The translations under genes were made by a program, and so were the position numbers. 15,611 nucleotides of DNA, taken from IMG/VR virus record IMGVR_UViG_3300029733_000039, positions 1 through 15,611 of that record; one strand, given 5' to 3'. The notes below the pieces were generated by a model. That model made no database searches. It was not told where the DNA came from and saw only the letters and a list, made by a program, of their open reading frames with translations. Of the stretch, positions 1,383-15,611 are shown piece by piece (position 1 is the stretch's first letter; each line of letters starts with the position of its first letter). Source of the stretch: a virus. Taxonomy: Duplodnaviria; Heunggongvirae; Uroviricota; Caudoviricetes.

Positions 1383-1510
1383 TTTGTTCTCCACTTTATA
1401 TGCGCTGCACCGCGCTGAATTTTGGTTAAAGAAAACCCTCGCCATCAGGCGATTATTGAGTCAATTATGTTTCCATAAATGCCCCCGCAGGGGCATTTGC
1501 AGTAATGAAA

Positions 1511-2335: not shown

Positions 2336-2400
2336 AATAAGTCCTCACTATATTAAGATATTCAGTGATGAGATAAATAATCAGTTAATTAAGAACGATA

Positions 2401-2763
2401 TTAATGACCTGCTGCGCGGAGTTTTCCGTCAGGTTCACCGGCAAGAGTCAGTAATTGTCCCTGGTCTTCCTGCAGAATAGTCAGGCGACCACCTCGATTG
2501 ACATACATCGGCGTTTCGGTGGTGTCTTCTTCGGAGATTTTCCCGCGGTTAGTCGGGCGAACATATGAGAGTTTGTGTTTGATTTTCACACGGTTCTCAT
2601 CAAACGGTTCGATGTCCAGATTGACCGAGACTTTACCTTTGTTTTTCGTGTTCATCACACCGGAAGCGACTTCACTGAGAACTGCGCCGAGTTTGGTTTC
2701 AAATACGCCGCCGTCCAGTTCTACGATAAATACCTGCACATCAGTACTGCGTACGCTAGCCAT
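2401..2763 (-). CDS. yfdP: YfdP-like hypothetical protein, 120 aa
   Basis: The ORF track gives 2401..2949; the preferred start is the ATG at 2763..2761 (MASVRSTDVQ...), which has a strong GAGGAG RBS. This gives 120 aa, the length of K-12 YfdP. The upstream 62-codon extension has no RBS and overlaps structured leader sequence. Confidence 0.55.
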   Translation of the reverse strand: MASVRSTDVQVFIVELDGGVFETKLGAVLSEVASGVMNTKNKGKVSVNLDIEPFDENRVKIKHKLSYVRPTNRGKISEEDTTETPMYVNRGGRLTILQEDQGQLLTLAGEPDGKLRAAGH

Positions 2764-2900
2764 TTTGCTGCTCCTCATCATACCGACCCTGCAAGGTCGG
2801 TTGGTTTCTCCACAAAACAGAGAAGAACACCTGCGGTGACAGCCGCCCGGATGGATTGGGTTATGAGCCCGTCGTCCGGTGATGCTCTTCTCTGTTTTGT

Positions 2901-2962
2901 AAAAAGAGCGGTACCAGCCGGAAGCAAGTGTACAAACTGGTACCGCCAAAGCAGTGGCTGTT
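2901..2962 (-). ncRNA. dicF: DicF-like small RNA with intrinsic terminator
   Basis: The minus-strand sequence UUUGGCGGUACCAGUUU matches the DicF core as I recall it (UUUGGCGGUAUCAGUUU) at 16 of 17 positions. It is followed by an 11-bp terminator stem (5' arm 2947..2937, 3' arm 2917..2907, including one G-U pair) with a 19-nt loop and a UCUUUUU tract (2907..2901). It lies in the early-left leader downstream of the repressor gene, as dicF does in Qin. The 5' end is not determinable from sequence. Confidence 0.5.
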
Positions 2963-3439
2963 GTGGTGCCGGTGCTGATCTCCGGCTTGCGGTTATTTCA
3001 GACTCTCACGGGCGTTTGATTGCCCCGCCGAACAGCTCTTTTCCGCAATAGCCGCAATGTCTTTCGCGCATCAGCCTGCGCATTCACCACAACGCTGAGA
3101 GCATTGCCGGTGTCCGAATCGAACGGACCTTTTCCCTGCCCAACCCTCCCATCTGAATGGGACTGTCTGGAATTGAACCAGCACTTATGCCTTGCTCGTC
3201 AATGCTCTCATCGTTGCGTCCTGGTCTCTTCCCAGGCGTCAAACCGAATCGCCACGCTGGTTAGGCGTCTTATCAGCATCATCATTGACTTGCACATTCC
3301 GGCTACCTGGTTTGTTTGCCCGAGCAAGGAGTGGATTGTCCCCTTTAACGTCCCCAGACCGCTAACGACGCATGTGCCATACGCCGTGTTACAACCAAAT
3401 TTTGTTTAATCTTGCCTGTGGCATGTTTCTTTTAGATAC

Positions 3440-3467
3440 ATTATGTATCTCAAGGGTACATTGTCAA
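3440..3467 (-). promoter_or_regulatory. Candidate PL early-left promoter with operator half-site
   Basis: On the minus strand: TTGACA (complement of 3462..3467), a 16-nt spacer, then CATAAT (complement of 3440..3445). A GGGTACA motif shared with the OR operator lies in the spacer. Inference only. Confidence 0.35.
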
Positions 3468-3470
3468 GTA

Positions 3471-3494
3471 TAAAAAAACCTGCCGAAGCAGGTT
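3471..3494 (-). terminator. Rho-independent terminator after the repressor gene
   Basis: Minus-strand hairpin AACCUGC-UUCG-GCAGGUU followed by a U7 tract, 12 nt downstream of the CI stop codon. Confidence 0.6.
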
Positions 3495-3505
3495 ATAAAT
3501 ATTGA

Positions 3506-4180
3506 TTAGGCCTTTATTTTGTATCTTCTTGGTTTTCCTGAGAAAATTACTGTACCAATTATAGAGCAATTACCGTTAATCTTAATGTAAGGCTCAGGCC
3601 AGTTTGGGTTTAATGCTTTGAGATAACGCTGTGTTCCATCTTCTATCAATCGCTTGAAGGTGGTTTCGCCTGTATCGTGCATCAATGCAATAACGTCGTC
3701 ACCGTGGCAGGCAGGGACTTCGGGATCAACAAAAATCATGTCTCCCGGGCGGTACTCATCAATCATTGAATCACCAATCACCCGCAAGATATAAGTCATT
3801 TCGCCACAGGGTACAGGGCAGGGATAAGTTTCTGCTGTGCTCAAATCAACCTCAGAATAGCCAACTTCTTTCCATGCTCCGGCCTGTACCCATGATATGA
3901 CAGGGACTAACGTTATTTGTTTGTTAGTAATTGAAACATCAGGTTTTTTTGTGATGTTTGTTGTCTGGTGTTCTTGATCAAGCCATCCGACAGGCAGGTC
4001 GAAACATTTTTCGATGTGCCGTGCCATGCTGTCACCGATATTTTTAGTAGCACCATCTCCCATAAACCTGCTGGTCTGGGTTGGCTCGCGATCAATCATG
4101 GTGGCAAAGGAAGAATTCCCGCCAACACCATCTCTCAGTTTTCTGGCGTTAGACCGCCGGATGTCATGGACTGTTTTCAT
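3506..4180 (-). CDS. CI-like phage repressor with C-terminal S24 (LexA-type) autopeptidase domain
   Basis: 224-aa ORF divergent from the cro-like gene. The C-terminal half has the S24 Ser-Lys dyad signature (VIGDSM ... TFKRL). The N-terminal part is consistent with a DNA-binding domain. A terminator follows directly. Confidence 0.85.
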   Translation of the reverse strand: MKTVHDIRRSNARKLRDGVGGNSSFATMIDREPTQTSRFMGDGATKNIGDSMARHIEKCFDLPVGWLDQEHQTTNITKKPDVSITNKQITLVPVISWVQAGAWKEVGYSEVDLSTAETYPCPVPCGEMTYILRVIGDSMIDEYRPGDMIFVDPEVPACHGDDVIALMHDTGETTFKRLIEDGTQRYLKALNPNWPEPYIKINGNCSIIGTVIFSGKPRRYKIKA

Positions 4181-4197
4181 AACGAAATTAAAACCTT

Positions 4198-4216
4198 TGT
4201 ACCGATAGGGTACAAG
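4198..4216. promoter_or_regulatory. Operator-like palindrome (OR) in the cI-cro divergent region
   Basis: Inverted repeat TTGTACC-GATAG-GGTACAA sits just upstream of the PR -35. The GGGTACA half-site recurs at the candidate PL near 3451..3460. Confidence 0.5.
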
Positions 4217-4220
4217 TATC

Positions 4221-4248
4221 TTGAAGGTTCATCTCAATCATGTAATAT
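4221..4248 (+). promoter_or_regulatory. Candidate PR promoter
   Basis: TTGAAG (4221..4226), 16-nt spacer, TAATAT (4243..4248). GGAGG RBS at 4256..4260 and cro ATG at 4271. Confidence 0.5.
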
Positions 4249-4270
4249 GTATATCGGAGGTACATATTGT

Positions 4271-4471
4271 ATGAAAGCGTATTGGGACTCTTTAACCAAA
4301 GAACAGCAGGGCGAGTTGGCCGGAAAAGTTGGCTCAACACCAGGCTACTTACGGCTGGTTTTCAATGGTTATAAAAAAGCCAGTTTTGTGCTGGCTAAAA
4401 AACTTGAGCAATGCACGTCAGGTGCAATTACGAAATCTGACTTAAGACCGGATATCTATCCGAAAGATTAA
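4271..4471 (+). CDS. Cro-like small DNA-binding protein, YdaS family, 66 aa
   Basis: ATG at 4271 preceded by GGAGG. The protein ends with a LRPDIYPKD motif reminiscent of YdaS/Cro-like proteins. The track ORF 3968..4471 is a long N-terminal extension through the repressor gene and is rejected. Confidence 0.7.
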   Translation: MKAYWDSLTKEQQGELAGKVGSTPGYLRLVFNGYKKASFVLAKKLEQCTSGAITKSDLRPDIYPKD

Positions 4472-4502
4472 CAGAACACCTTCAATTTTTAACCACAGAA
4501 CG

Positions 4503-5072
4503 ATGAGGCTAACCGTGGGTAAGCATCACTGGAAAGTAGAAAAACAGCCTGAGTGGTACGTGAAAGCTGTCAGAAAAACTATCGCGGCGTTGCCGGGGGG
4601 TTACGCTGAAGCTGCTGAGTGGCTGGATGTAACAGAGAACGCTTTATTCAACCGCCTTCGTGCAGATGGCGATCAGATTTTCCCGCTGGGATGGGCAATG
4701 ATTTTACAGCGCGCGGCTGGCACTCACTACATTGCGGATGCTGTCGCACAGTCTGCTGGTGGGGTGTTTGTATCGCTTCCTGAAATTGAGGAAGTAGAGA
4801 ATGCCGATATAAACCAGCGCCTGCTGGAAGTCATCGAACAGATCGGGAGTTACTCAAAGCAGATTCGTTCGGCAATCGAAGATGGGGTAGTGGAGCCACA
4901 CGAGCAGACAGCAATTAATGATGAGTTGTATCTGTCAATTTCGAAGCTCCAGGAGCATGCAGCACTGGTCTACAAAATCTTTTGCGCTCCAGAAAAGAGT
5001 GACGCCCGCGAGTGTGCAGCTCCGGGCGTCGTGGCGTCGATTGCTTCTGGTTGTGGAGAAACTAACGCATGA
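4503..5072 (+). CDS. YdaT-like / CII-position regulatory protein, 189 aa
   Basis: First gene downstream of cro in the PR operon. Family resemblance to YdaT (structurally CII-like) is from memory. An alternative GTG start at 4515 has a GAGG RBS. The stop overlaps the next ATG (ATGA). Confidence 0.5.
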   Translation: MRLTVGKHHWKVEKQPEWYVKAVRKTIAALPGGYAEAAEWLDVTENALFNRLRADGDQIFPLGWAMILQRAAGTHYIADAVAQSAGGVFVSLPEIEEVENADINQRLLEVIEQIGSYSKQIRSAIEDGVVEPHEQTAINDELYLSISKLQEHAALVYKIFCAPEKSDARECAAPGVVASIASGCGETNA

Positions 5073-6865
5073 ATAGTTTAACGGCAAATAACCGTTTGTC
5101 GCAACAGCTGGTGGTCAGCGTCGCTGAACACCTGTTGTTACGGCATGAATGCAGATTACCAAATCACCTGGCTGTAAGTAACCACAGAGAACTTTACCTG
5201 ACTGTGGGGGGCGAGTTGTGCAGGAACTTAACCGCTGGTTTCGTGACGGAAGAGGGCTTTATGTCCATGTTATTCGTTGGGAGCCAGAAACACAGCGCGT
5301 TATCTATCTTCGCAAAGACTACCCGCATGAGTGCTTTAGTCCTTTGTGGAAATTCAGGCGTGATTTTGTTGAGTGTGAAGGACCACCAGCATATTGATTC
5401 TGCCATTCCGGGACGTTACACTGTTCAGGCACCTTATAAAGCGGGTGCCGGGATTGGCGTCCTGAAATTGTCAACGGCGATGTATGACGCGCCAGCGTCT
5501 TTTTTATCGTCCGCATTTGCTCACATCCAGATAATGGTGGGCTGGGCGGGGGCACCGAAAGGTGCGCCGGTCTCCGTTGACGCCGGTTACGCCAACCCCG
5601 TCCAGTTCACCACCAGTGAAATTGGCGTTTCCGGTGGTGGAAGTTTTTCACTGTCAACGGAGGCTGCCATCATGGCTACGATCCCAGCCCTCACTCAACC
5701 TGAAATCACCATTGACAACGGCCAGGCCGTTACCACTTCTTTGGCTGTTGCCAACTCCTTCTCCAAGCGTCACGACGATGTGCTGAAAAAGATCCGCACT
5801 CTGGATTGTTCCCCTGAGTTTTGTGCCCGCAATTTTGCGGAGACATCGATTTCGGTAAATCAACCGAACGGTGGTACACGCAAGCTCCCTTGCTATCAAA
5901 TCACACGAGACGGTTTTGCGTTTCTTGCTATGGGTTTCACGGGTAAACGTGCTGCCCGGTTCAAAGAGGCATACATCAATGCCTTTAACCAGATGGAGAA
6001 ACGCTGCATTACGGCGTTATCCCTTTTTGACTATCTCCGCTTGTTGCGCCTTGCTGGTGTTCCGGGTTATATTTCTCGCGTTGCTGTAAATCCAGCAACC
6101 GGGTTTAGCAGCCCGGAACACATCACAGCGCACAACCGCGCCTGCGGTTTTTTTGTGTGCAATGCCCGGTCACATCTGAATTATGGTGGCCTGGGTAGGG
6201 GAGCCGAAAGGCTCGCCGGGTTCTGTGATGACCGGTCTGCTAACCCTGCTCAGGTTACCACCAGTTGTTTAGCAGCAGCTTGTGGTGATAAGTCAAAACT
6301 CATCACAGGGGCTGTCGTTATGACTACCATCCCAACCCTCGCTCAACCTGAACTTTGTGTTATTGATGGCAAAGTCGTTACTTCTTCGCTGGCTGTTGCC
6401 GATTATTTCCATAAACCCCACAAAGACGTACTGGCAAAAATTTCTCGTCTGGATTGTTCCGTCGAATTTACCGAGCGAAATTTCTCGCTCAGCAAATACA
6501 CCGATGTAACAGGGCGTAAGTTGCCGTGTTATCACATCACTAAAAATGGCTTCGCGTTCCTAGCTATGAGTTTTACAGGCAAGCGAGCGGCTCGTTTTAA
6601 AGAGGTGTACATAAACGCCTTTGACCAGATGGAAAATCAACTTTCAAATCCTTCTAGGTTGAATGACGTCGCACATAACGCCAGCGTTCTCTATTCCTAC
6701 ATTTCATCAATTCATCAGGTCTGGCTGCAGCAGCTTTATCCCATGTTGGCAAAAGCCGAATCCCCGCTGGCTGTAAGTCTGTATGACCGCATCAACGACG
6801 CGGCGCTACTGGCCAGTCTCATAAATTTGTCGCTGAATCCTTCAGAGGTAAGGGGGCGCAAATGA
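5069..6865 (+). CDS. 598-codon ORF with two tandem Rha (phage regulatory protein / antirepressor-like) domains; gene model uncertain
   Basis: Single open frame 5069..6865. Two Rha-type domains (TTSLAVA ... LPCY.ITRDGFAFLAM.FTGKRAARFKE.YINAF.QME) begin at in-frame ATGs 5672 and 6320, each with its own RBS (GGAGG at 5659..5663; AGGGG at 6306..6310). The first 200 codons have no recognisable domain. Internal nucleotide-level elements (see findings) suggest the real products may be shorter, for example 5672..6865 or 6320..6865. Confidence 0.5.
   Translation: MNSLTANNRLSQQLVVSVAEHLLLRHECRLPNHLAVSNHRELYLTVGGELCRNLTAGFVTEEGFMSMLFVGSQKHSALSIFAKTTRMSALVLCGNSGVILLSVKDHQHIDSAIPGRYTVQAPYKAGAGIGVLKLSTAMYDAPASFLSSAFAHIQIMVGWAGAPKGAPVSVDAGYANPVQFTTSEIGVSGGGSFSLSTEAAIMATIPALTQPEITIDNGQAVTTSLAVANSFSKRHDDVLKKIRTLDCSPEFCARNFAETSISVNQPNGGTRKLPCYQITRDGFAFLAMGFTGKRAARFKEAYINAFNQMEKRCITALSLFDYLRLLRLAGVPGYISRVAVNPATGFSSPEHITAHNRACGFFVCNARSHLNYGGLGRGAERLAGFCDDRSANPAQVTTSCLAAACGDKSKLITGAVVMTTIPTLAQPELCVIDGKVVTSSLAVADYFHKPHKDVLAKISRLDCSVEFTERNFSLSKYTDVTGRKLPCYHITKNGFAFLAMSFTGKRAARFKEVYINAFDQMENQLSNPSRLNDVAHNASVLYSYISSIHQVWLQQLYPMLAKAESPLAVSLYDRINDAALLASLINLSLNPSEVRGRK
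5486..5615 (+). repeat. Copy 1 of a conserved structured module (terminator-like hairpin plus multi-stem element) upstream of Rha domain 1
   Basis: Hairpin GACGC-GCCA-GCGTC plus T6 (5486..5505). Then outer stem GGTGG (5536..5540) / CCACC (5610..5614), a 10-bp stem 5542..5551 / 5596..5605, a GAAA-loop hairpin 5552..5565, and a CCGG/CCGG hairpin with 12-nt loop 5567..5586. Confidence 0.6.
6134..6263 (+). repeat. Copy 2 of the same structured module, upstream of Rha domain 2
   Basis: Hairpin AACCGC-GCCT-GCGGTT plus T-run (6134..6154). Outer stem GGTGG (6185..6189) / CCACC (6258..6262), stem 6191..6200 / 6244..6253, GAAA-loop hairpin 6201..6214, CCGG/CCGG hairpin 6216..6235. Several base pairs differ from copy 1 by compensatory changes. 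Copy 2 is 1 nt shorter, so the 5' part is read in a different frame from copy 1. Confidence 0.6.
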
Positions 6866-7086
6866 TCCGGAATATTTTCAAACGGTTTACCAATCATACT
6901 TTCCGTTGTCCTCGTCCGGGTCAGTGGTACACCACGCCTGCAGGGCATGTTCTACGTGTTAGCCTGGTTGACCGTGAATGTCAGAAGGTGGTTTGTGAAC
7001 CGCTGGGCCGTAATTACCGCGTCAGTATGCCGCTTATAGCCTTTTGCTCCGGAAAAATGTTTAAGCGTCTGGGAGGTGTGGCGTGA
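6862..7086 (+). CDS. Hypothetical small protein, 74 aa
   Basis: ATG overlaps the stop of the Rha ORF (ATGA). Cys-containing (possible small metal-binding protein); no recognisable family. Confidence 0.45.
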   Translation: MIRNIFKRFTNHTFRCPRPGQWYTTPAGHVLRVSLVDRECQKVVCEPLGRNYRVSMPLIAFCSGKMFKRLGGVA

Positions 7087-7382
7087 ACTGTTTTCAGTTT
7101 GTGTGCGGATGTGCTTTCGATAACCCGATTCAGCGCCTGATTATGTTGCGTGTTTTGATGTCGGGTTCTTCAGACGGTGAAGGCGAGAGAGTTATTGATC
7201 ATCAGGTGCTTGCTGATTTCTGCTGTTGTTCTAAGCAAGCGATATTCAGGGAAACCCTGGCACTGGAAAGAGCTGGTTATCTTCATATCCGAAAAATTGC
7301 AACGCTTACTATTGATGCAAAAGCCAGACTACAACCTGCGCGTGGCTACACAATTCTCATGCTGCGGAAGGAGGTTGTATGA
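7083..7382 (+). CDS. Hypothetical small protein, 99 aa, possible helix-turn-helix
   Basis: GTG start overlapping the upstream stop (GTGA). Its stop overlaps the O-like ATG (ATGA). Weak HTH-like segment (QAIFRETLALERAGYLHIRK). Confidence 0.45.
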   Translation: MNCFQFVCGCAFDNPIQRLIMLRVLMSGSSDGEGERVIDHQVLADFCCCSKQAIFRETLALERAGYLHIRKIATLTIDAKARLQPARGYTILMLRKEVV

Positions 7383-8386
7383 GCCGTTACGCCCCCACAC
7401 CGGAAGTTATGGCTATTGGTCAAATTAATATTTCCGGCAATGTTACACCTGCGACCTGGTGGAAATATATTCGACTACCCAGTGGGCGTCCGGATGCGAC
7501 GGCTATCGCTCTGCTTTCAGAGATCGTTTACTGGTACCGCCCGACAGAGGTCAGGGATGAGCACACCGGAGCGTTGCTGGGATATCGCAAGCGTTTTCAG
7601 GGCGACAAACTGCAAAGAAGCTACCAGGCGTTTGCTGAGCAGTTTGGTTTCGGGAAAAGGGAAACCGCAGATGCGCTGAAGCGTCTGCGCGATGCAGGGT
7701 TTATTACTCTGGATTTACGCACGGTGGAAATGCTCGATGGGGTGAAATGCAGCAATATTTTGTTTGTCGGGATCAACCCACAGGCAATTGCGGCCATCAC
7801 CACACCTTCTTCTGTTTCGCCAGAAAGTAACAGCAATAATGCAATCAGCGATACAGCTATTACGTTAAAACGGAACACCCCCCGACGTCATAACGGAACA
7901 GGGGATACGCCGAATGTTGATACAAATACAGAGATTACTACAGAGATTACTACAGAGATTACTACAGAGATTACAACGGAGACTAAAAACACTATTGGCG
8001 CATCCGCTGACGCGTCTGCACCAGCGCGTTCTGCCAGACAGGAATATTCACCGGAATTTGAACAGGCCTGGCAGGAATATCCCAAACGTGCTGGTGGTAA
8101 TTCAAAATCCGCCGCTTTTAAAGCCTGGAAAGCCCGAATCAGGGAAGGTGTGACACCCGAAACCATGCTCGACGGTGTGAAACGCTATGCCGCCTGGGTG
8201 CGTGTCTCTGGAAATACCGGTACCCAGTTCGTGAAGCAGGCGTCGACGTTCTTTGGTCCGGATCGTCATTTCGAAGAATCCTGGGAAGTTCCTGCGGTAT
8301 CTGCAGTCAGACGCGAGGACCCGTACTTCAAATCCAGTTACGACAACGTGGACTACAGCCAGATCCCGGCAGGATTCAGGGGGTGA
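7379..8386 (+). CDS. Replication initiator (lambda O-like / replisome organizer) with internal iteron-encoded TEIT repeats
   Basis: 335-aa ORF in the O position of the PR operon. The central linker TEITTEITTEITTEITTE is encoded by tandem 12-bp repeats, as with the iteron-bearing origin inside lambda O. Synteny corresponds to CPS-53 yfdO, which is a fragment in K-12. Confidence 0.7.
   Translation: MSRYAPTPEVMAIGQINISGNVTPATWWKYIRLPSGRPDATAIALLSEIVYWYRPTEVRDEHTGALLGYRKRFQGDKLQRSYQAFAEQFGFGKRETADALKRLRDAGFITLDLRTVEMLDGVKCSNILFVGINPQAIAAITTPSSVSPESNSNNAISDTAITLKRNTPRRHNGTGDTPNVDTNTEITTEITTEITTEITTETKNTIGASADASAPARSARQEYSPEFEQAWQEYPKRAGGNSKSAAFKAWKARIREGVTPETMLDGVKRYAAWVRVSGNTGTQFVKQASTFFGPDRHFEESWEVPAVSAVRREDPYFKSSYDNVDYSQIPAGFRG
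7928..7975 (+). repeat. Four tandem 12-bp direct repeats (ACAGAGATTACT), candidate origin iterons
   Basis: Perfect or near-perfect 12-bp repeats at 7928, 7940, 7952 and 7964, with a degenerate fifth. They lie inside the O-like gene. Confidence 0.6.
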
Positions 8387-8388
8387 TC

Positions 8389-8877
8389 ATGAGTCTGTTA
8401 AATGACGTTCAGAAATTCATTGAAGCCCATCCGGGGTGTACTTCCGGAGACATTGCGGATGCTTTTACAGGTTACTCACGGCAGCGCGTTCTGCAGTCAG
8501 CAAGCAAGTTACGTCAGAGTGGGCGTGTGGCTCACCGTTGTGAAGGAGATACACGCAGACATTTCCCGCGCCTGACTGAGAGAGCGCAGGAACCGGAACC
8601 ACAACCAGTTCGTGAAACCAGACCTGTGCGCAATTTCTATGTCGGCACTAACGACCCGCGGGTGATTTTGTGCCTGACCCGCCAGGCTGAAGAACTGGAG
8701 TCCAGGGGCTTATACCGTCGTGCTGCAACGGTGTGGATGGCGGCATTCCGTGAAAGCCACTCCCAGCCAGAACGAAACAATTTTCTGGCACGTCGTGAGC
8801 GGTGCTTACGGAAAAGCAGCAAGCGCGCTGCATCGGGTGAAGAGTGGTATCTGTCAGGGAATTTCGTGGGGGCTTAA
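8389..8877 (+). CDS. YfdN-like phage protein, about 162 aa
   Basis: The track ORF starts at GTG 8383; the preferred start is ATG 8389, which has an AGGGGG RBS. The start region overlaps the O-like stop. Its TAA overlaps the next ATG (TAATG). Function unknown; the C-terminal region is Arg-rich. Confidence 0.55.
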   Translation: MSLLNDVQKFIEAHPGCTSGDIADAFTGYSRQRVLQSASKLRQSGRVAHRCEGDTRRHFPRLTERAQEPEPQPVRETRPVRNFYVGTNDPRVILCLTRQAEELESRGLYRRAATVWMAAFRESHSQPERNNFLARRERCLRKSSKRAASGEEWYLSGNFVGA

Positions 8878-9530
8878 TGAGTAATAAATATTGCCAGGCG
8901 CTGGTGGAACTGCGGAACAAACCAGCCCATGAACTGAAGGAAGCGGGCGATCAGTGGCGCACGCCGGACAACATTTTCTGGGGAATTAACACTCTGTTTG
9001 GCCCGTTTGTTCTGGATCTGTTTACTGACGGTGATAACGCCAAATGTGCTGCGTATTACACGGCGGAAGACAACGCGTTGGCGCATGACTGGTCAGAACG
9101 CCTTGCGGAGCTTAAAGGTGCTGCCTTTGGTAATCCCCCATACAGCCGCGCCAGTCAGCATGAGGGGCAATACATCACCGGCATGCGTTACATCATGAAG
9201 CATGCCAGTGCCATGCGTGATAAAGGCGGGCGCTATGTTTTCCTGATCAAAGCTGCCACCAGCGAAGTGTGGTGGCCGGAAGATGCAGATCATATTGCTT
9301 TTATTCGCGGGCGTATTGGTTTTGAACTGCCTGCCTGGTTTATCCCGAAAGACGAAAAGCAGGTGCCAACAGGTGCTTTCTTCGCTGGTGCTATTGCTGT
9401 TTTCGACAAGACCTGGAAGGGAGCGGCAATCAGCTACATCGGGCGCGATGAACTTGAGGCATGTGGTGAGGCATTTCTGGCGCAGGTTCGCCAGCAGGCG
9501 GAAAAACTGGTCAGGGAGATGGCGGCATGA
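8877..9530 (+). CDS. Phage N6-adenine DNA methyltransferase (Dam-like, YfdM-type)
   Basis: Contains the catalytic motif GNPPYS (NPPY). Start ATG 8877 is coupled to the upstream stop. The track ORF 8844 is an N-terminal over-extension. Confidence 0.8.
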   Translation: MSNKYCQALVELRNKPAHELKEAGDQWRTPDNIFWGINTLFGPFVLDLFTDGDNAKCAAYYTAEDNALAHDWSERLAELKGAAFGNPPYSRASQHEGQYITGMRYIMKHASAMRDKGGRYVFLIKAATSEVWWPEDADHIAFIRGRIGFELPAWFIPKDEKQVPTGAFFAGAIAVFDKTWKGAAISYIGRDELEACGEAFLAQVRQQAEKLVREMAA

Positions 9531-9853
9531 CGACATTAACTCAATGCCAGCAGCAGGTGCTGGATATGCTGATTTCTTATCAGAAAGAACGTGGCTTCCC
9601 GCCAACCAATCAGGAGGTGGCAACCATGCTGGGATACCGTTCGGTGAATGCAGCGGTGGAGCATCTTCGCGCACTGGAGAAAAAAGGTGTCATCACGATA
9701 AAGCGTGGCGTGGCCCGGGGTATCACTCTTCATACCGCGGTGAAGGACGACGACAGCGAGGCGGTCGGGATTATCCGCGCCCTGCTTGCCGGTGAGGCAA
9801 ACGCCAGGCTGCGTGCAGCCCACTGGTTACATGAGAGGGGCCTGAAAGTATGA
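9527..9853 (+). CDS. LexA N-terminal DNA-binding-domain homolog lacking the S24 cleavage domain, 108 aa
   Basis: The N-terminal 70 aa aligns by eye with the E. coli LexA winged-HTH domain (MTTLTQCQQQVLDML...GFPPTNQEVATMLGYRSVNAAVEHLRALEKKGVI versus MKALTARQQEVFDLI...[34 protein letters not shown]). There is no Ser-Lys protease domain. ATGA overlaps on both sides. Confidence 0.7.
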   Translation: MTTLTQCQQQVLDMLISYQKERGFPPTNQEVATMLGYRSVNAAVEHLRALEKKGVITIKRGVARGITLHTAVKDDDSEAVGIIRALLAGEANARLRAAHWLHERGLKV

Positions 9854-10245
9854 AGCTAATACTGCCTTTTCCGCCCAGCGTGAACACGTACTGGCGACAC
9901 CCCAACAAAGGGGCGTTTGCTGGTAAGAGCCTGATAAGCGCGGCGGGGCGAAAATTCCAGAGCGCGGCGTGTGCAGCAATAGTTGAGCAGTTACGTCGTC
10001 TGCCGAAACCAACGTCGGCACCTGCTTCAGTGGAGATCGTGTTGTTTCCTCCGGATAACCGGATCCGCGATCTGGACAACTATAACAAGGCGCTGTTTGA
10101 CGCCCTGACCCACGCGGGTGTGTGGGAAGACGACAGCCAGGTGAAAAGAATGCTGGTGGAGTGGGGACCGGTTATCCCGGAAGGGAAGGTCGAGATCACT
10201 ATCAGTAAGTACGAAAAAGCGAGTTGCAAATTAGCAACTCGGTAA
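9850..10245 (+). CDS. rusA: RusA-family Holliday junction resolvase
   Basis: 131-aa protein with the RusA core (RIRDLDNYNKALFDALTHAGVWEDDSQV, matching the conserved acidic residues). Last gene of the coupled operon. Confidence 0.85.
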   Translation: MKLILPFPPSVNTYWRHPNKGAFAGKSLISAAGRKFQSAACAAIVEQLRRLPKPTSAPASVEIVLFPPDNRIRDLDNYNKALFDALTHAGVWEDDSQVKRMLVEWGPVIPEGKVEITISKYEKASCKLATR

Positions 10246-10290
10246 CGGAATTGAGCAACACCCTAAATTTGGGTATTACCTCGTTAAAGA

Positions 10291-10310
10291 TACTGTATTT
10301 ATGAACAGTG
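10291..10310. promoter_or_regulatory. LexA box (SOS operator) upstream of the KilA-N / DUF968 / Q gene block
   Basis: TACTGTATTTATGAACAGTG fits the consensus TACTG-(TA)5-CAGTA, with CTG and CAG at canonical spacing. It lies in the 160-bp intergenic region after rusA. A candidate promoter is TTGAGC (10252..10257), 17-nt spacer, TATTAC (10275..10280). Confidence 0.6.
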
Positions 10311-10407
10311 TATCCTTGATAACTATTAAAAATCGCAGTAAGTTCATCCTGCATCAACGAAAAGGGAGTGCAGTCCCGCTCGTGGATAAAAATTTGTGGA
10401 GAAACCA

Positions 10408-11223
10408 ATGAATCAGTTGCTTGTAATTGATGGCGTTTCTGTGCGCCAGTACTTCGAATCTAACTACTGTCTTAACGACCTTCAGAAAGCTGCTCTTCTT
10501 GCCGCTGGTGAGAATCGCTCCTCCCGTTCGCTGGAAGTTCACGAGTTTATGCGTCGTCCTGAAACGAAGGCTCTTGTGGAATTATTGGAAGAAGAAACTA
10601 CGGGAGATTCCCGTAGTATTCCTGTCATCACCATTCAGGGGCGCAATGGTGGGACGTATGTCTGTAAAGAGCTGGTCTATGCATATGCAATGTGGATCAG
10701 CCCGGCATTCAGCTTAAAAGTGATACGTACTTTTGATGCGCTTCATAATTCATCACCAGAAGAAACCACATCCGACAAAATTAAATCCGGGGTCATTCTG
10801 CTTGAATCAGCAGCAAAGACTCTAAATCTGTCAAACTCCTCGAAACTTGGTGCATACCAGAAATTATCAAAGGTAGCTGGTCTTCCTGAACTTATGCCGA
10901 TCTATGCCATTGATGCACCTGCTGATGCGCCAGATGGTTCAAGCCGCCCTACGCTGTCGCTGAGTGCACTGCTGAAGCAGTATGGTATCCGCCTGACGGC
11001 TAATCAGGCATATCACCAGATGGCGAAGCTGGGGATCGTTGAACAACGCGAACGATACAGCCGTACCGCGATTAACAACATCAAAAAATTCTGGTCGCTG
11101 ACAGCGAAAGGCTGCATGTTCGGCAAGAACATCACCAGTCCTGCAAATCCGCGCGAGACGCAGCCGCATTTCTTCGAATCCCGATTCCCTGAGCTGTTAA
11201 AGCTGCTCGATACCGTTCATTGA
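10408..11223 (+). CDS. KilA-N domain protein (antirepressor-like / DNA-binding)
   Basis: N-terminal KilA-N-like region (VCKELVYAYAMWISPAFSLKVIRTFD). Preferred start is ATG 10408, with a GGAG RBS 7 nt upstream. The track start 10396 is less likely. Confidence 0.65.
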   Translation: MNQLLVIDGVSVRQYFESNYCLNDLQKAALLAAGENRSSRSLEVHEFMRRPETKALVELLEEETTGDSRSIPVITIQGRNGGTYVCKELVYAYAMWISPAFSLKVIRTFDALHNSSPEETTSDKIKSGVILLESAAKTLNLSNSSKLGAYQKLSKVAGLPELMPIYAIDAPADAPDGSSRPTLSLSALLKQYGIRLTANQAYHQMAKLGIVEQRERYSRTAINNIKKFWSLTAKGCMFGKNITSPANPRETQPHFFESRFPELLKLLDTVH

Positions 11224-11224
11224 G

Positions 11225-12220
11225 GTGACCGTGAGAGCACTACTGACCCCTGAAATCGCCCCGCGTATGGGGATCGTATTGTTCAGGCCAGGTTCAGAGC
11301 TGATGCCCCTGTTTATGCAGGGGCGTGTCCTGCTGGAGCCTGAGCCGGAACGTTATTCATCTTTTGCCAGTGGTGCCGTTCCGGCATCATCACAACCGCT
11401 GGCGGATGATCCTGCCGTTCGGGCCGTGTTCCGCCATGAGGCGGTGATCCGTCGTGCTGGTGGCGTGGAATGCCTTGAGAGCTGGTTACTTCGTGAAAAG
11501 GGCTGTCAGTGGCCTCATTCCGACTGGCACAGCGAGAACATGACCACAATGCGGCACGCGCCAGGCGCAATCCGTCTGTGCTGGCACTGTGACAATCTTC
11601 TCCGTGACCAGTTCACGGAACGGCTGGAAGCAATGGCAACGGATAACTGTGCCCGCTGGGTGTTGTCTGTTGTGCGCCGTGATCTTGGTTTTGATGACAG
11701 TCACGTTGTGACAATGCCGGAACTGTGCTGGTGGCTGGTTCGTAATGACCTGGCGGATGCTTTACCGGAAAGTGCAGCCCGTAAGGCCCTGAGATTACCG
11801 AAGCCTGTTTTGCCGTCTGTCACCCGGGAGAGTGACCTTGTACCTTCGGTTACTGCCACCAGTATTATCCGGGATAAAGCGAAAAAGGTGCTGGCGCTGA
11901 AAGTGGATCCGGAGTCGCCGGAGTCTTTTATGTTACGCCCCAAACGTCGTCGCTGGGTTAATGAAAAGTACACTCGCTGGGTTAAGACGCAGCCGTGTGC
12001 ATGTTGTGGAAAGCCAGCTGATGATCCGCATCATCTGATTGGTCACGGCCAGGGTGGTATGGGGACAAAAGCGCATGATCTCTTTGTGTTGCCTTTGTGC
12101 AGAAAACACCATGACGAACTGCATGTGGATACCGTGGCATTTGAAGAGAAGTATGGTTCCCAACTGGAGCTGATATTTCGTTTTATCGATCGCGCACTGG
12201 CGATTGGTGTGCTGTCCTGA
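11225..12220 (+). CDS. DUF968-family phage protein (YdfU-like) with C-terminal Cys/His cluster
   Basis: 331-aa ORF with GTG start. The C-terminus (CACCGKPADDPHHLIGHG ... CRKHHDELH) looks like an HNH / zinc-binding motif. Family assignment is from memory. Confidence 0.6.
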   Translation: MTVRALLTPEIAPRMGIVLFRPGSELMPLFMQGRVLLEPEPERYSSFASGAVPASSQPLADDPAVRAVFRHEAVIRRAGGVECLESWLLREKGCQWPHSDWHSENMTTMRHAPGAIRLCWHCDNLLRDQFTERLEAMATDNCARWVLSVVRRDLGFDDSHVVTMPELCWWLVRNDLADALPESAARKALRLPKPVLPSVTRESDLVPSVTATSIIRDKAKKVLALKVDPESPESFMLRPKRRRWVNEKYTRWVKTQPCACCGKPADDPHHLIGHGQGGMGTKAHDLFVLPLCRKHHDELHVDTVAFEEKYGSQLELIFRFIDRALAIGVLS

Positions 12221-12237
12221 TTTTGTGGAGAAAGTTG

Positions 12238-12630
12238 ATGCGTGATATTCAGATGGTTCTTGAACGCTGGGGGGCATGGGCGGCAAGTGGTAACACCGGG
12301 GTGGACTATTCTCCGATAGCTGCTGGATTTAAAGGCCTTTTACCATCCACCGCTAAACCTCGCCCGGCCTGCAGCGATGATGACGGCCTTATCATCGAAA
12401 ACTGCCTTACGCGCCTGAAGAAGAAAAAACCGGACGAGTATTCGCTGCTGGTAGCTCATTATCTGCTGCGCATATCAAAAAGGCAGATTGCCAGAACAAG
12501 AAAGAAGAGCGAAAAGGCAATACGAATTGAGATGCAGATTGCTGAAGGATTTATTGACGGATGTCTGTCGATGCTGGGTGTAAGGCTGGAGATGGACGAC
12601 TGGCTGCCCAAAAAAGTAAAAAATGATTAG
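12238..12630 (+). CDS. Late-gene antiterminator Q (phage 21/82-type, QuuD-like)
   Basis: The N-terminus MRDIQMVLERWGAWAA... matches the characteristic start of Q antiterminators of this type as recalled. ATG 12238 has a GGAG RBS. The track TTG start at 12223 is less likely. A terminator follows. Confidence 0.75.
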   Translation: MRDIQMVLERWGAWAASGNTGVDYSPIAAGFKGLLPSTAKPRPACSDDDGLIIENCLTRLKKKKPDEYSLLVAHYLLRISKRQIARTRKKSEKAIRIEMQIAEGFIDGCLSMLGVRLEMDDWLPKKVKND

Positions 12631-12690
12631 CGCGGTCCGCAAAAAGTATGTCAGTATGTTAAGAGTGGTTACTACGCCACACAACTTAAA

Positions 12691-12712
12691 CCCGCCGCCT
12701 GGCGGGTTTTTT
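12691..12712 (+). terminator. tR'-like intrinsic terminator downstream of Q
   Basis: CCCGCC-GCCT-GGCGGG followed by T6, about 60 nt after the Q stop, as expected for a late-promoter / tR' arrangement. The late promoter itself could not be pinned down. Confidence 0.7.
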
Positions 12713-12831
12713 ATGACTGAAATCGCATCAGTACAGTAAACGTGCTGGTGGTGAATACCTGTCTTTCAGCTTGCTGGCTTTTTAGACAAGAGTTATTGGT
12801 ATGTCACGTTAACCGGAAAAGGGAAAAAGAC

Positions 12832-13029
12832 ATGCTAAAACAGCAGGATATGACAGAAACCGCCAGAGTGGTGTTTAATGAATTAAGCGTCACCTACCCG
12901 GCGACAGTCGGGGAGATTGCGCAGAATACTTACCTTTCACGCGAACGCTGCCAGTTAATACTGACCCAGCTGGTTATGGCGGGTCTGGCAGACTATCAGT
13001 TCGGTTGTTACAGACGCCTTCCGCAGTGA
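12832..13029 (+). CDS. Small hypothetical protein, 65 aa, possible winged-helix regulator; cargo gene in the stx-equivalent position
   Basis: ATG 12832 follows a purine-rich stretch (AAGGGAAAAAGAC). The protein has an HTH-like segment (TVGEIAQNTYLSRERCQLILTQLVMAGL). Its stop lies inside a terminator hairpin. The track start 12742 is rejected as over-extended. Confidence 0.4.
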   Translation: MLKQQDMTETARVVFNELSVTYPATVGEIAQNTYLSRERCQLILTQLVMAGLADYQFGCYRRLPQ

Positions 13030-13040
13030 AGGCTTTTTTA
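13016..13040 (+). terminator. Intrinsic terminator at the end of the small cargo ORF
   Basis: GCCTTC-CGCAGT-GAAGGC followed by TTTTTT. Confidence 0.5.
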
Positions 13041-13358
13041 TTTGTGGTAAATGGGCGGCTGGTGGGTGTGGTGGTTGTTGCTTCCCCGTTGCTGAAAAAG
13101 AAAGCATCAGGCGATTAGCAGGGTATCAGTTACCCGTTGAAATTTTTAAATACCTCACAATTCAGGCGGTTGACTGTTGTCTGGTTTGCGGGGAGTTTGT
13201 TAAAAGAAACTGGCATGGTGAATCCCCCTGTGCGGAGGGGCAATCAGCAACTGGTGTTTTGTCACCGACCCTTATCCTTTCTGTGCGGGTTCAGGTGCTG
13301 ATACTGAACTCACCGGGAGGCACCCGGCACCATGCAATGGCACATAGCGCCACTCTCC

Positions 13359-13385
13359 AGCCCCTCTCCGGAGGGGCTTTCTTAT
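13359..13385 (+). terminator. Plus-strand intrinsic terminator in the non-coding cargo region
   Basis: AGCCCCTC-TCCG-GAGGGGCT followed by TTCTTAT. Confidence 0.5.
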
Positions 13386-13389
13386 GGAC

Positions 13390-13418
13390 AAAAAAAGCCC
13401 GCGCTGGGAGACGCGGGC
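13390..13418 (-). terminator. Minus-strand intrinsic terminator, convergent with the previous one
   Basis: On the minus strand: GCCCGCG-TCTCCCAG-CGCGGGC followed by U7. Confidence 0.5.
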
Positions 13419-13612
13419 GGCAAGGAATAAACAACAAAACGTGAAGTAATATTTCAGCTGGCGAATAATATCCGACAGTAATCACTCTGCGCAATAGCGC
13501 GGCCTTTTTCGTATTGCGGGCTGTAGTCTTCCTCCTGCCATTGTCCTGTAACTTCCGGACTTCAGCCCGTTCCCTCATCTGACTCACAACATTATCCCGA
13601 CCGGGAGGATTC

Positions 13613-15595
13613 ATGGCATTTAAACACTATGACGTGGTCAGGGCGGCGTCGCCGTCAGACCTTGCGGAGCGACTGACTCAAAAACTGAAGGAGGGGTGGC
13701 AGCCATTTGGCAGTCCGGTGGCCATCACGCCCTATACCCTGATGCAGGCCATTGCGGCGGAAGGTGATGTCACCACACCGGTGGTGGTGCAACCGTCGGG
13801 TGATGGTGGCGCTGTTATCAGCACCACCAGCGAACCGGAATATTACTTTGTCATTGCGCTGGCCGGGCAGTCCAACTCGATGTCTTTTGGCGAGGGGCTG
13901 CCGCTGCCGGATACGTATGATCGTCCTGACCCGCGTATTAAGCAACTGGCGCGTCGCAGCACGGTGACACCGGGCGGTGCGGCCTGTGCATATAACGACA
14001 TTATTCCTGCAGACCATTGTCTGCATGATGTGCAGGACGTGAGTAATCTGAATCACCCGAAAGCAGACCTCAATAAAGGGCAGTATGGCTGTGTGGGGCA
14101 TGCCCTGCATGTGGCCAAAAAACTGCTGCCGTTTATGCCTGCCCGTGCGGGGATCCTTCTTGTCCCGTGTGGACGTGGCGATTCGGGATTTACTGCGGGA
14201 GCAGAGGGCGCGTTTAATGAGGCGTCGGGTGCGACAGCGGGCTCTTCCCTGTGGGGGGGGGATAAACCGTTGTATCGTGACCTGGTCAGCAGAACGCGTG
14301 CAGCCCTGAAGAAAAATCCGAAAAACGTGCTGTTGTCGGTGATCTGGATGCAGGGGGAAAAAGATGTCAGTTCGGGGAGACATGCAGAGCACAATGCACT
14401 TTTTCTTGCCATGGTAAATAAATACCGTGCAGACCTGGCAGATATTGCAGACCAGTGTATTGGCGGGACAACGTCCGGCGTCCCGTGGATTTGCGGTGAC
14501 ACCACGTACGACTGGAAGGCGAAGTATGCAGTGCAGTATGAGGCGGTTTACGGAGGCTATAAAGGCAAGGCGGCGCAGAATATTCACTTTGTGCCGTTGA
14601 TGACGGATGAGCATGGTGCGAATGTGCCGACAAACGAGCCGTCAGAAGATCCGGACATTATCACGGCGGGATACTATGGTGCCGCGTCACGCAGTAATGG
14701 TAACTGGACGACAGCCGATCGTAAAACGCACTTCAGCTCCTGGGCGCGAAGAGGCATTGTTTCAGATCGGCTGGCAGGAGAGATACTGGTGCGAGCCGGG
14801 CGTTTGCTGCCGTTCCTGAGCGGGCAGTCTGCACCGCTGGCGACCACGCCAGCCTCCACGGGGGATGCACAGTCTGGCTCTGCGGGTCCGACGCAACAGC
14901 AGGGTGCAGGTACTTCTGCAGGCGGTCATACTGAAGCCGTAACAAGAATGGTGGCCGGATATGATGCGAACAGTGGCAGTGGTGTATGGACAGAGCAGCA
15001 GTGGAATGCGTCCGGTGGTAAAGGCACTGTGACGGATGACAGTGGCAGGAAGGCGCTGCGACTGGAAAAACAGCCGGGTAAACTGACCTCCTGGAAGATG
15101 TTCCGTACTGTTGCGGTGGAGGAGGCAAAAAATCTTCTCAGTAAGGGAGGTGAAATTGCCGTGCGGTTTAAGATCCCGGAGGGTGTCGAACTGGTTAACG
15201 GTCAGTTTGTCTTTGGTCTGTACTGGCCGGTGTCGCAGTGGGCGTCAGGCGCGACAGCAAACAGCATGCTGGCGTCCTTCTTCCTTCAGACGGATGCATC
15301 AAATCTGAATCTGATGTACCACAAGGGGGAGTCGAATGCGCAACTGGGCACATTTGGGGCATTTGACCATAACTGGCATACGGTTGTTTTCCGCTTTGCG
15401 GGAAATAACAGCGAAAAAGTGGTGCCGGTGATTGATGATGCAGAGCAGTCTGCGTTTGACCTGGTGATGTGGACAAATGATGGCTTTACAGCAGATACGC
15501 TGACGCTGACAGATATCACGGGGGCAAAAGCGACGTATCCGGTACTGCTTGATACGGTCACAGTCAAAGTTAACGAAAACCGGGAATCAGCATAA
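13613..15595 (+). CDS. nanS: Prophage sialate O-acetylesterase (NanS-p-like: DUF1737 N-terminal domain plus SASA/SGNH esterase domain)
   Basis: 660-aa ORF with a GGAGG RBS. The N-terminus MAFKHYDVV... and the GQSN active-site motif (ALAGQSNSM) are typical of the nanS-p genes found downstream of stx / Q in lambdoid prophages. The C-terminal roughly 200 aa is Gly/Thr/Ser-rich and looks like a carbohydrate-binding region. Confidence 0.75.
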   Translation: MAFKHYDVVRAASPSDLAERLTQKLKEGWQPFGSPVAITPYTLMQAIAAEGDVTTPVVVQPSGDGGAVISTTSEPEYYFVIALAGQSNSMSFGEGLPLPDTYDRPDPRIKQLARRSTVTPGGAACAYNDIIPADHCLHDVQDVSNLNHPKADLNKGQYGCVGHALHVAKKLLPFMPARAGILLVPCGRGDSGFTAGAEGAFNEASGATAGSSLWGGDKPLYRDLVSRTRAALKKNPKNVLLSVIWMQGEKDVSSGRHAEHNALFLAMVNKYRADLADIADQCIGGTTSGVPWICGDTTYDWKAKYAVQYEAVYGGYKGKAAQNIHFVPLMTDEHGANVPTNEPSEDPDIITAGYYGAASRSNGNWTTADRKTHFSSWARRGIVSDRLAGEILVRAGRLLPFLSGQSAPLATTPASTGDAQSGSAGPTQQQGAGTSAGGHTEAVTRMVAGYDANSGSGVWTEQQWNASGGKGTVTDDSGRKALRLEKQPGKLTSWKMFRTVAVEEAKNLLSKGGEIAVRFKIPEGVELVNGQFVFGLYWPVSQWASGATANSMLASFFLQTDASNLNLMYHKGESNAQLGTFGAFDHNWHTVVFRFAGNNSEKVVPVIDDAEQSAFDLVMWTNDGFTADTLTLTDITGAKATYPVLLDTVTVKVNENRESA

Positions 15596-15611
15596 CCGGC
15601 AAAAAAAACCG

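Follow-up and report, generated by a model that had tools for sequence, protein, structure and literature searches.

Does host LexA have direct access to the late switch of a prophage whose own repressor is already cleavable, and what would a phage-borne protein with the DNA-binding domain of LexA do in such a circuit? This question is raised by a 15,611-nucleotide (nt) stretch of viral DNA (IMG/VR virus record IMGVR_UViG_3300029733_000039, positions 1 to 15,611; hereafter, the window), which comes from a lambdoid Escherichia prophage (SfIV/PhiR49_1 type) and spans its immunity region, early-right genes and late switch. Its segment 9000-12700 shows 97% identity to PhiR49_1 over 89% of the length and 94% identity to Shigella phage SfIV over 83%. 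Two elements are considered here: a LexA (SOS) box in the leader of a KilA-N gene, and LexN, a small LexA-like protein whose gene lies about 440 nt upstream of that box. All the elements that a first-pass annotation had named at this locus were found where it had placed them. We find that the box is very probably a real, predicted LexA operator, that LexN cannot cleave itself, and that the two, judged by where each of them occurs, are not tied to each other.

The LexA-type box and its leader

The box, TACTGTATTTATGAACAGTG, has the form CTGT-N8-ACAG with an A/T spacer and TA as its 5' flank. It lies in a 162-nt gap (10246-10407), which is the sole sizeable gap from the cII-like gene (4503) to the late antiterminator gene Q. 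For scoring, we used a heterology index (HI) whose matrix was derived anew from 20 known E. coli boxes, and the resulting values are approximate. With an HI of 5.7, the box surpasses every other site in the window by a wide margin (the runner-up scores 11.5), and an HI of 8 or lower appeared anywhere in only 4 of 500 shuffles of the window. Among E. coli K-12 sites, the LexA-binding class peaks at an HI of about 7.3 and the non-binding class at about 22; prophage promoters are now being scanned for SOS boxes with the HI on a large scale (PMC12527982). SfIV and one E. coli variant (AZ187) carry a still better version, TACTGT...ACAGTA, with an HI of 4.5. In five aligned leader variants as well as the scanned viral-contig leaders, bases 1-19 of the box are invariant and the last base is G or A. 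Two other CTGT-N8-ACAG sites, at 5172 and 15027, were rejected as SOS boxes, having G/C-rich or poor spacers, a location in coding sequence and an HI above 12.6. The near-consensus SOS box that had been reported in the only sizeable gap of the rightward operon is thus borne out by both its sequence and its score.

The comparative evidence comes from KilA-N-domain relatives collected from IMG/VR and from GTDB, each species of the latter being represented by a single genome (185,579 species genomes). Loci with RusA / KilA-N+C / DUF968 synteny were kept, giving 63 distinct upstream regions, in which any site with an HI of 12.6 or lower was taken as a LexA-like box; the counts are not phylogenetically independent, and the matrix is the approximate one described above. 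These regions form two classes. The leaderless class, with a gap of less than 55 nt (mostly 16-21 nt), comprises 23 loci, none with a box, and has a median best HI of 21. The leader-bearing class, with a gap of mostly 60-170 nt and including a few loci with no open reading frame called for several hundred nt upstream, comprises 40 loci with a median best HI of 12.4; a box is found in 21 of them, with 13 loci at an HI of 10 or lower and 10 at 8 or lower. In 1,000 shuffles, the mean number of loci was 0.41 at the 12.6 threshold (maximum 3), 0.05 at 10 and 0.01 at 8. The boxes sit 70-165 nt before the start codon and occur in leaders of Escherichia, Pantoea, Edwardsiella, Erwinia, Enterobacter, Superficieibacter, Serratia, Atlantibacter and Providencia. 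Their sequences differ, as illustrated by TGCTGGTTACATATCCAGTA (an IMG/VR contig of the Pantoea type), GGCTGTTTTAATATCCAGTA (Edwardsiella), GATTGTATATTTATACAGTC (Erwinia) and GACTGTATGTTAATCCAGTG (Providencia phage PSTCR8lys). Because boxes are present in 21/40 leader-bearing loci but in 0/23 leaderless ones, with 0.41 expected, the site in the window is predicted to be the LexA operator of an internal promoter, and very probably a real one. Boxes are degenerate or absent in many other orthologous leaders, and the operator is therefore dispensable or prone to decay. We conclude from this survey that the predicted LexA operator is an ancestral, recurrent yet dispensable part of the KilA-N leader.

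In the window, the leader belongs to a mosaic cassette (Table 1). Homology to SfII and Stx2a_1447 breaks at about 10216, in the final rusA codons, and the rusA-to-KilA-N gap of SfII, SfV, cdtI, mEp460 and Stx2a phages is 19 nt long and contains no box. Downstream of the leader, the N-terminal KilA-N domain is a distinct allele, showing 44-54% identity to the other lambdoid alleles in phage records; the C-terminal half of the protein is 86-87% identical in E. coli-type leaderless loci. Of 50,697 phage records, only five contain the 261-nt leader (two of SfIV, two of PhiR49_1 and one of VIT_AJPSC). Among 5,426 complete E. coli genomes it occurs in 186, invariably between rusA and KilA-N; one of these E. 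coli loci is a non-stx prophage of O104:H4 C227-11.

A clear promoter at the leader was not recovered. The consensus promoter scan of 9400-10700 found none above threshold, and both promoter candidates therefore rest on reading by eye and comparison with relatives. These two weak candidates, P-up and P-down, flank the box. P-up, which is seen in the E. coli-type cassette only, would put the box at about +5 to +24. The candidate -35 of P-down begins 5 nt downstream of the LexA-type palindrome, which would put the box at about -60 to -41; its hexamers and 17-nt spacing (TTGAAA...TAAGGT/TAATGT/TAGTGT) recur in the leaders of Enterobacter, Superficieibacter, Atlantibacter, Klebsiella and Phytobacter. 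In the Pantoea type, a GTTACA-17-TATATT/TATAGT pair overlaps the box, and a GTGACA-16-TATTCT pair in Providencia puts the box at the start site. The geometry therefore differs among groups, and a promoter-like pair is always within reach of the box. Overall, these results uphold one part of the proposal that the box serves as a LexA operator, since it is LexA-type by every sequence criterion and recurs non-randomly in several genera; the part that did not stand is a clear promoter. No convincing terminator was found between the leader and Q (from 10408 onwards), with the KilA-N, DUF968 and Q genes abutting, and SOS-dependent transcription as far as Q is therefore plausible. On the minus strand, a terminator-like hairpin with a T-run lies inside the last rusA codons, with no obvious leftward gene upstream of it; no convincing leftward promoter to match this terminator was seen by eye.

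The leader contains a further conserved element, a hairpin located 15-35 nt upstream of the KilA-N ribosome-binding site, which is present in the window and in about 50 other loci (e.g. L001:2715-2745 and L010:1440-1470). In the 70 nt upstream of syntenic KilA-N genes (56 distinct regions), a hairpin with T[GA]C[AG]G in its loop and a stem of 4 bp or more was found in 51 regions, against 4.3 in shuffles; for stems of 5 bp or more, the figures are 44 and 1.8. In all, 29 different innermost stems were seen. The leaderless class has it as well; in SfII, for example, GGCGG-GTGCAG-CCGCC overlaps the rusA stop codon. A small covariance model gave 31 matches in 232 kb on both strands, 30 of them at the KilA-N position, including loci outside the model. 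Taken alone, the hairpin of the window is thermodynamically unexceptional (z = -1.3). A fixed-register covariation count was set aside: it beat all 500 shuffles and tied with a one-column slide because the loop sizes differ, which leaves the variable-loop scan and the covariance model as the usable evidence. The variable stems around a conserved loop suggest an RNA (or single-strand) element tied to KilA-N expression. Rfam gave no match to the leader or the hairpin, either at the gathering threshold over the whole window or at E values up to 10 over 10200-10450. Nearly all related leaders have GTGGAG at the ribosome-binding site itself.

A second hairpin of this kind was observed on the minus strand at 2782-2801, with a perfect stem of 7 bp closing a TTGCAG loop (ACCGACC-TTGCAG-GGTCGGT). 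A leftward gene (2401-2763) follows, its probable ATG (2763) lying 18 nt downstream of the hairpin. In front of the hairpin stands the 13-mer GTGGAGAAACCAA, the same one that forms the KilA-N ribosome-binding region. Eighty close relatives conserve the hairpin, with a single G-U to G-C difference in its stem.

The LexA-like protein LexN

LexN consists of a LexA-type winged helix-turn-helix (HTH) domain (residues 1-68), a flexible linker (69-74) and a conserved helical hairpin (75-102). Residues 1-65 match the Pfam family LexA_DNA_bind (PF01726) with an E value of 2.9e-19, with no other notable Pfam match; Peptidase_S24 gave no Pfam match, and the protein stops at residue 108. Residues 2-70 align with residues 2-70 of E. 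coli LexA (PDB 1lea and 3jso; E ~1e-15). Against the TIGR00498 lexA equivalog, LexN scores 70.7 bits, below the cut-off of 110.95 because only model positions 1-91 are covered. The AlphaFold model (mean predicted local distance difference test score, pLDDT, 80.4) has three helices and a two-stranded wing, beyond which disordered residues 71-74 lead into the helical hairpin (helices 75-87 and 93-102). In a Foldseek comparison, the first ~67 residues of this model superpose on 1lea/3jso at a root-mean-square deviation (rmsd) of 1.0-1.2 Å with ~51% identity. LexA contacts DNA through Ser39, Asn41, Ala42, Glu44 and Glu45 (PMC3091678); at these positions LexN has S39, N41, A42, V44 and E45, so that four of the five are kept. 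The first-pass description of a LexA N-terminal winged-HTH homologue with no autoprotease domain is therefore confirmed.

The protein is widespread in prophages of E. coli, Shigella, Citrobacter and Salmonella. A protein search returned relatives from E. coli, Citrobacter, Salmonella and Hafnia that are 65-98% identical, and a single cluster at 90% identity counts 2,527 sequences; more distant relatives, of 40-53% identity, came from other genera, where the gene preceding rusA in syntenic prophages was translated. Complete family members are nearly all 106-112 amino acids long, with a few longer mechanical reading frames. Across the family (40-100% identity), S39, N41, A42 and E45 are retained; the recognition helix keeps S-x-N-A-A-x-(E/D) with a variable position 44, and the C-terminal hairpin is conserved in length and hydrophobic pattern. 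In the window, the LexN gene follows dam and precedes rusA in the rightward early operon and is translationally coupled, its start overlapping the dam stop (ATGA, 9527-9530) and its stop overlapping the rusA start (ATGA, 9850-9853). LexN A88-G89 aligns to the LexA cleavage site Ala84-Gly85; in the family, however, the Ala of this apparent Ala-Gly pair is swapped for N, I, D, G, S or L and the Gly alone is kept, and in the model the pair falls in the turn between the two helices. Overall, LexN is a real, selected protein that carries a LexA DNA-binding domain on a new C-terminal module, and it is unable to self-cleave. It probably dimerises through its own C-terminal helical hairpin.

In the literature, "pham 237", a LexA-family regulator with only pfam01726, is listed in 15 Stx phages (PMC8136144). 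Our literature search found the lambdoid LexA-like protein known from annotation only, with no study of it, and likewise no study of the RusA / KilA-N / DUF968 block or of the leader. PADLOC and NCBIfam searches gave nothing informative.

A question raised from these findings is whether LexN and the box belong together. LexN is found in phages with neither leader nor box, namely SfII, SfV, cdtI, mEp460 and many Stx2a and Stx2c phages; conversely, two E. coli-type loci and the Pantoea, Erwinia and Serratia types have boxed leaders without LexN. Since each is found without the other, a functional pairing of the LexN gene with the box is not upheld, and this distribution shows the two to be independent, uncoupled modules at the level of gene content.

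We also examined boxes elsewhere in the prophage pool. About 65 strong boxes (HI of 8.5 or lower) occur in 1.29 Mb of 80 LexN-bearing IMG/VR loci, and three places recur among them: the KilA-N leader (15 loci); the inside of a 230-amino-acid cI allele (24 IMG/VR loci; 29167-29186 in SfII (L253) and L256:6444-6463); and the start of a 350-amino-acid DNA methyltransferase gene after Q (about 25 IMG/VR loci, e.g. L256:13920-13939). A strong box is absent from 16 of 49 well-covered LexN-bearing loci. The box in the cI allele, TACTGTTTTTATATACAGTA, is near-perfect (approximate HI 0.4), lies in the sequence coding for the HTH-S24 linker and exists in two conserved sequence variants; the methyltransferase box, TACTGTAAAAATAAACAGTG, overlaps codons 3-9 of its gene, and the window does not have this box. 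When half-site spacings and orientations from N0 to N16 were scanned in the 1.29 Mb of LexN-bearing loci, recurrent sites with an A/T spacer emerged for N8 alone. The N14 spacing, with as many distinct sequences as N8, was rejected, as these resemble coding sequence. No covariation was detected between recognition-helix variants of LexN and half-site variants of the box. These comparisons suggest that the main targets of LexN need not be phage-borne, should it bind LexA-type boxes.

Proposed regulation and competing explanations

The genes downstream of the leader are those named by the first-pass annotation, with Pfam matches to KilA-N, DUF968/HNH and Phage_antitermQ. Its term "antirepressor-like" for the KilA-N protein was not sustained: the Pfam KilA-N domain covers residues 14-118 only and is followed by a C-terminal domain, no antirepressor domain (ANT/KilAC, AntA/B or P22_AR) was detected by Pfam, NCBIfam gave no match, and the PHROG 129 label is "transcriptional regulator". 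The ANT/KilAC domain is the one linked to antirepressor and SOS-damping activity in AriS-like proteins (PMC9043618). Furthermore, CI shows the cleavage and catalytic motifs QAG/AW (Ala-Gly), GDSM and FKRL in its translation and, as read from these, is a normal cleavable repressor; with its complete S24 domain, an antirepressor is therefore not needed.

We favour the reading that two modules lie side by side, a LexA-guarded leader promoter for KilA-N, DUF968 and Q and an uncleavable LexA surrogate, LexN, and we give it a probability of about 45%. The leader cassette (10216-10407) would provide KilA-N, DUF968 and Q with a sigma-70 promoter of their own under host LexA. In the lysogen, a LexA dimer on the box would shut this promoter; upon LexA self-cleavage triggered by RecA*, the promoter would fire, and KilA-N, DUF968 and probably Q would be transcribed. 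Such a route would skip CI cleavage, N-type antitermination and ~6 kb of P_R read-through, providing an SOS short-cut or boost to the late switch, while relatives lacking the cassette would express KilA-N, DUF968 and Q from the P_R operon only. LexN would be a delayed-early P_R product that is blind to RecA*, because its LexA DNA-binding domain would be dimerised by its own C-terminal hairpin. Its most likely role would be to fill LexA-type boxes after host LexA has been destroyed, thereby re-closing the host SOS regulon, the LexA-gated genes of co-resident prophages and its own leader promoter, so that LexA de-repression would become a pulse. Use of the promoter, LexA binding, transcription to Q, and the dimerisation, specificity and role of LexN are the parts of this scheme that we infer.

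Several points weigh against this scheme. The leader has no promoter at scanner threshold, and the better-conserved candidate, P-down, sets the box at a distance unusual for a repressor site. Many leaders are half-degenerate, with GTGGAT or TTGTAT as the left half and an intact ACAG or CCAG on the right, and some have no box; the E. coli leaders are too alike for their conservation to inform, and the HI matrix is itself approximate. As for LexN, one LexA contact position is changed (E44V), and the geometry of its dimer may not fit the N8 spacing, given that GIL01 gp6 binds a different palindrome. Of 36 LexN-bearing loci, 11 have no strong box from -8.5 to +5.5 kb, and three of four LexN-less loci have one; with only four such controls, these counts give no support to a LexN/box association and leave its absence unproven. 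The literature search, too, gave no experimental paper on LexN or on the leader and its box.

The system that these modules most resemble is that of GIL01, a tectivirus of Bacillus thuringiensis (Fornelos et al. 2018, PMC6182141), in which an early gene encodes a truncated, uncleavable LexA homologue and a host-LexA box guards the promoter to late functions, so that two LexA-family proteins could share one promoter. Its gp6 is the closest studied analogue of LexN. The two systems differ in that GIL01 has a Gram-positive host and no CI, and in that gp6 falls well short of LexN in size and has as its target GaCACAnnTGTGaC, a palindrome of non-LexA type that overlaps the -35; LexN has an extra conserved helical hairpin and the LexA contact residues and is uncoupled from the box, and for it activation or binding is at most predicted. 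This likeness underlies a serious rival, drawn by analogy, in which LexN made from P_R would bind the box once host LexA has vacated it, recruit RNA polymerase to the weak promoter TTGATA-17-TAAGTT and so time and boost Q. In GIL01, the late promoter P3, itself repressed by LexA, is switched on by gp6 bound to a palindrome with its centre at -43.5 (PMC6182141). The box here would be centred at about -50.5 of P-down, where activators typically bind, and the -10 of P-down is poor (3/6); LexN is encoded 440 nt upstream, within the same operon, and Q follows downstream. However, LexN is frequent where leader and box are missing, boxed leaders occur without LexN, the Pantoea and Providencia boxes overlap the -35 or the start site as a repressor site would, and recognition helix and half-sites do not covary. 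That LexN and the box are not co-inherited argues against activation as the general function of LexN, and we judge this rival quite unlikely.

An unlikely account is that the box came with the cassette from a setting where it did matter and has no effect here, KilA-N, DUF968 and Q being transcribed from P_R only and LexN regulating something unconnected with LexA boxes. The functioning of leaderless relatives without a box, the degenerate boxes in many orthologous leaders and the want of a strong promoter would all agree with such a passenger, and among near-identical E. coli copies any selection on the box would be invisible. What speaks against it is the roughly 50-fold over-representation of LexA-like boxes, with different sequences, at the same place in several genera, together with the even better box in the SfIV and AZ187 variants; moreover, strong boxes are common in the prophage pool (~65 in 1.29 Mb, compared with far fewer than one per Mb in window shuffles), and LexA control of lambdoid modules therefore seems selected. 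The box, being symmetric, might instead control a short leftward transcript ending at 10241-10220, such as an SOS-induced antisense RNA to the rusA 3' end, and the terminator-like hairpin, whose T-run is on the minus strand only, is indeed 50 nt away. We consider this highly improbable, as there is no acceptable leftward -35/-10 pair and no Rfam match, and the hairpin is limited to the E. coli-type cassette while boxes recur in leaders without it. Finally, a more ambitious joint version, which we regard as doubtful, would make LexN a LexA surrogate that re-silences the SOS regulon and prophage modules, with the KilA-N/Q leader, the cI-allele box and the start-codon box of the post-Q methyltransferase as its targets; it would act together with the leader as a GIL01-like late timer, and the UGCAG-loop hairpin would add a post-transcriptional layer.

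Returning to the favoured arrangement of two modules side by side, its parts have counterparts in other phages. In 186 (Tum), Gifsy-1/3 (GfoA/GfhA; Lemire et al. 2011, PMC3121763) and N15 (AntC), a LexA operator likewise precedes a phage regulatory gene and leads to SOS-dependent induction. The Tum/GfoA-type phages have non-cleavable repressors and small dedicated antirepressors, whereas here CI has a full S24 domain, the first gene encodes a KilA-N protein without ANT, and the transcript would continue into DUF968 and Q. As with Listeria AriS (ANT/KilAC, PMC9043618) and GIL01 gp7 (PMC4551915), a temperate-phage factor could keep LexA-regulated genes off; AriS, however, probably acts on RecA and gp7 binds LexA, while LexN, which has no sequence relationship to them, would replace LexA on DNA. 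Compared with E. coli LexA, LexN has an N-terminal winged-HTH that is ~50% identical (1.0 Å rmsd) and keeps S39, N41, A42 and E45, but it lacks S24, Ser119/Lys156 and a conserved Ala-Gly bond and has Val in place of E44, and its dimerisation element must differ from that of E. coli LexA. Taken together, LexN and the box are genuine and independent of each other, and each belongs to a class of module that other phages already exemplify.

Neighbouring features and implications of possible SOS control of the prophage

The features of the locus are collected in Table 1. By Pfam, the left part of the window runs from CI through the cII-like gene, a Rha/Ash region and replication genes to a PerC-like gene; the right part comprises dam (8844-9530), LexN, rusA, the 162-nt gap, KilA-N, DUF968/HNH, Q and a nanS-p-type esterase gene.

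Table 1 Features of the box-bearing locus and associated genes in the window
Feature	Position	Strand	Basis or remark
CI-type repressor, complete S24 autoprotease	3506..4180	-	Pfam Peptidase_S24 residues 93-212, E 1.5e-26
LexN, 108 amino acids, ATG start	9527..9853	+	Pfam, PDB, NCBIfam, AlphaFold model, Foldseek, family alignments
rusA, Holliday-junction resolvase	9850..10245	+	Pfam RusA; last ~30 nt part of mosaic cassette
Mosaic cassette (approximate ends): variant rusA 3' end, 162-nt leader, N-terminal KilA-N domain allele	10216..10770	+	alignments
Terminator-like inverted repeat CGAGTTGC-N6-GCAACTCG, then CTTTTTCG on minus strand	10220..10241	-	leftward transcription
Candidate promoter P-up: TTGAGC (10251-10256), 17 nt, TATTAC (10274-10279)	10251..10279	+	8/12; below threshold
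LexA (SOS) box	10291..10310	.	sequence; heterology index; leader alignment
Candidate promoter P-down: TTGATA (10316-10321), 17 nt, TAAGTT (10339-10344)	10316..10344	+	8/12
Conserved hairpin	10357..10383	+	inner stem GGGA/TCCC (10364-10367 / 10374-10377), loop GTGCAG (10368-10373), outer stem ACGA/TCGT
Shine-Dalgarno GGAG	10398..10401	+	sequence; 6 nt before ATG 10408
KilA-N domain protein, 271 amino acids	10408..11223	+	Pfam; PHROG 129; RefSeq start codon in relatives
DUF968 / HNH-type nuclease, YdfU family	11225..12220	+	Pfam; PHROG 96
Late antiterminator Q	12223..12630	+	Pfam Phage_antitermQ, E 3e-52; probable start ATG 12238

Three other parts of the window showed recognisable elements. An isrK plus C4-antisense-RNA pair is present in two tandem copies on the plus strand (5429-5505, 5530-5617, 6080-6154 and 6179-6265; Rfam, 62-83 bits), within a 598-amino-acid mechanical open reading frame matching Ash and two Rha domains; these copies read as a duplicated P1/P7-type (or Gifsy-1 IsrK-type) antisense-controlled regulatory module of the early-right operon. 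Within a replication-initiator-like open reading frame (7379-8386), a TEITTEITTEITTEIT run at ~7930-7990 (plus strand) is encoded by at least four tandem 12-nt DNA repeats, which resemble origin iterons inside an O-type gene. Between Q and the nanS-p-type esterase gene, a match to the small RNA STnc100 (143 bits) spans 13184-13389 on the plus strand; since terminator-like hairpins follow at 13359-13378 and 13487-13502, this is probably the pR' late leader.

If the favoured arrangement is true, late-gene expression gains an SOS input that bypasses the CI/N cascade, and in relatives with stx downstream of Q such an input could in principle reach toxin expression; the leader itself was found in non-stx contexts only (SfIV, PhiR49_1 and the O104:H4 non-stx prophage). 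A LexA-gated Q would also bear on how antibiotics trigger prophages. As for LexN, a RecA-proof LexA mimic would offer a phage a simple way to switch host SOS off or to silence LexA-gated rivals, with consequences for mutagenesis, persistence and competition between prophages.

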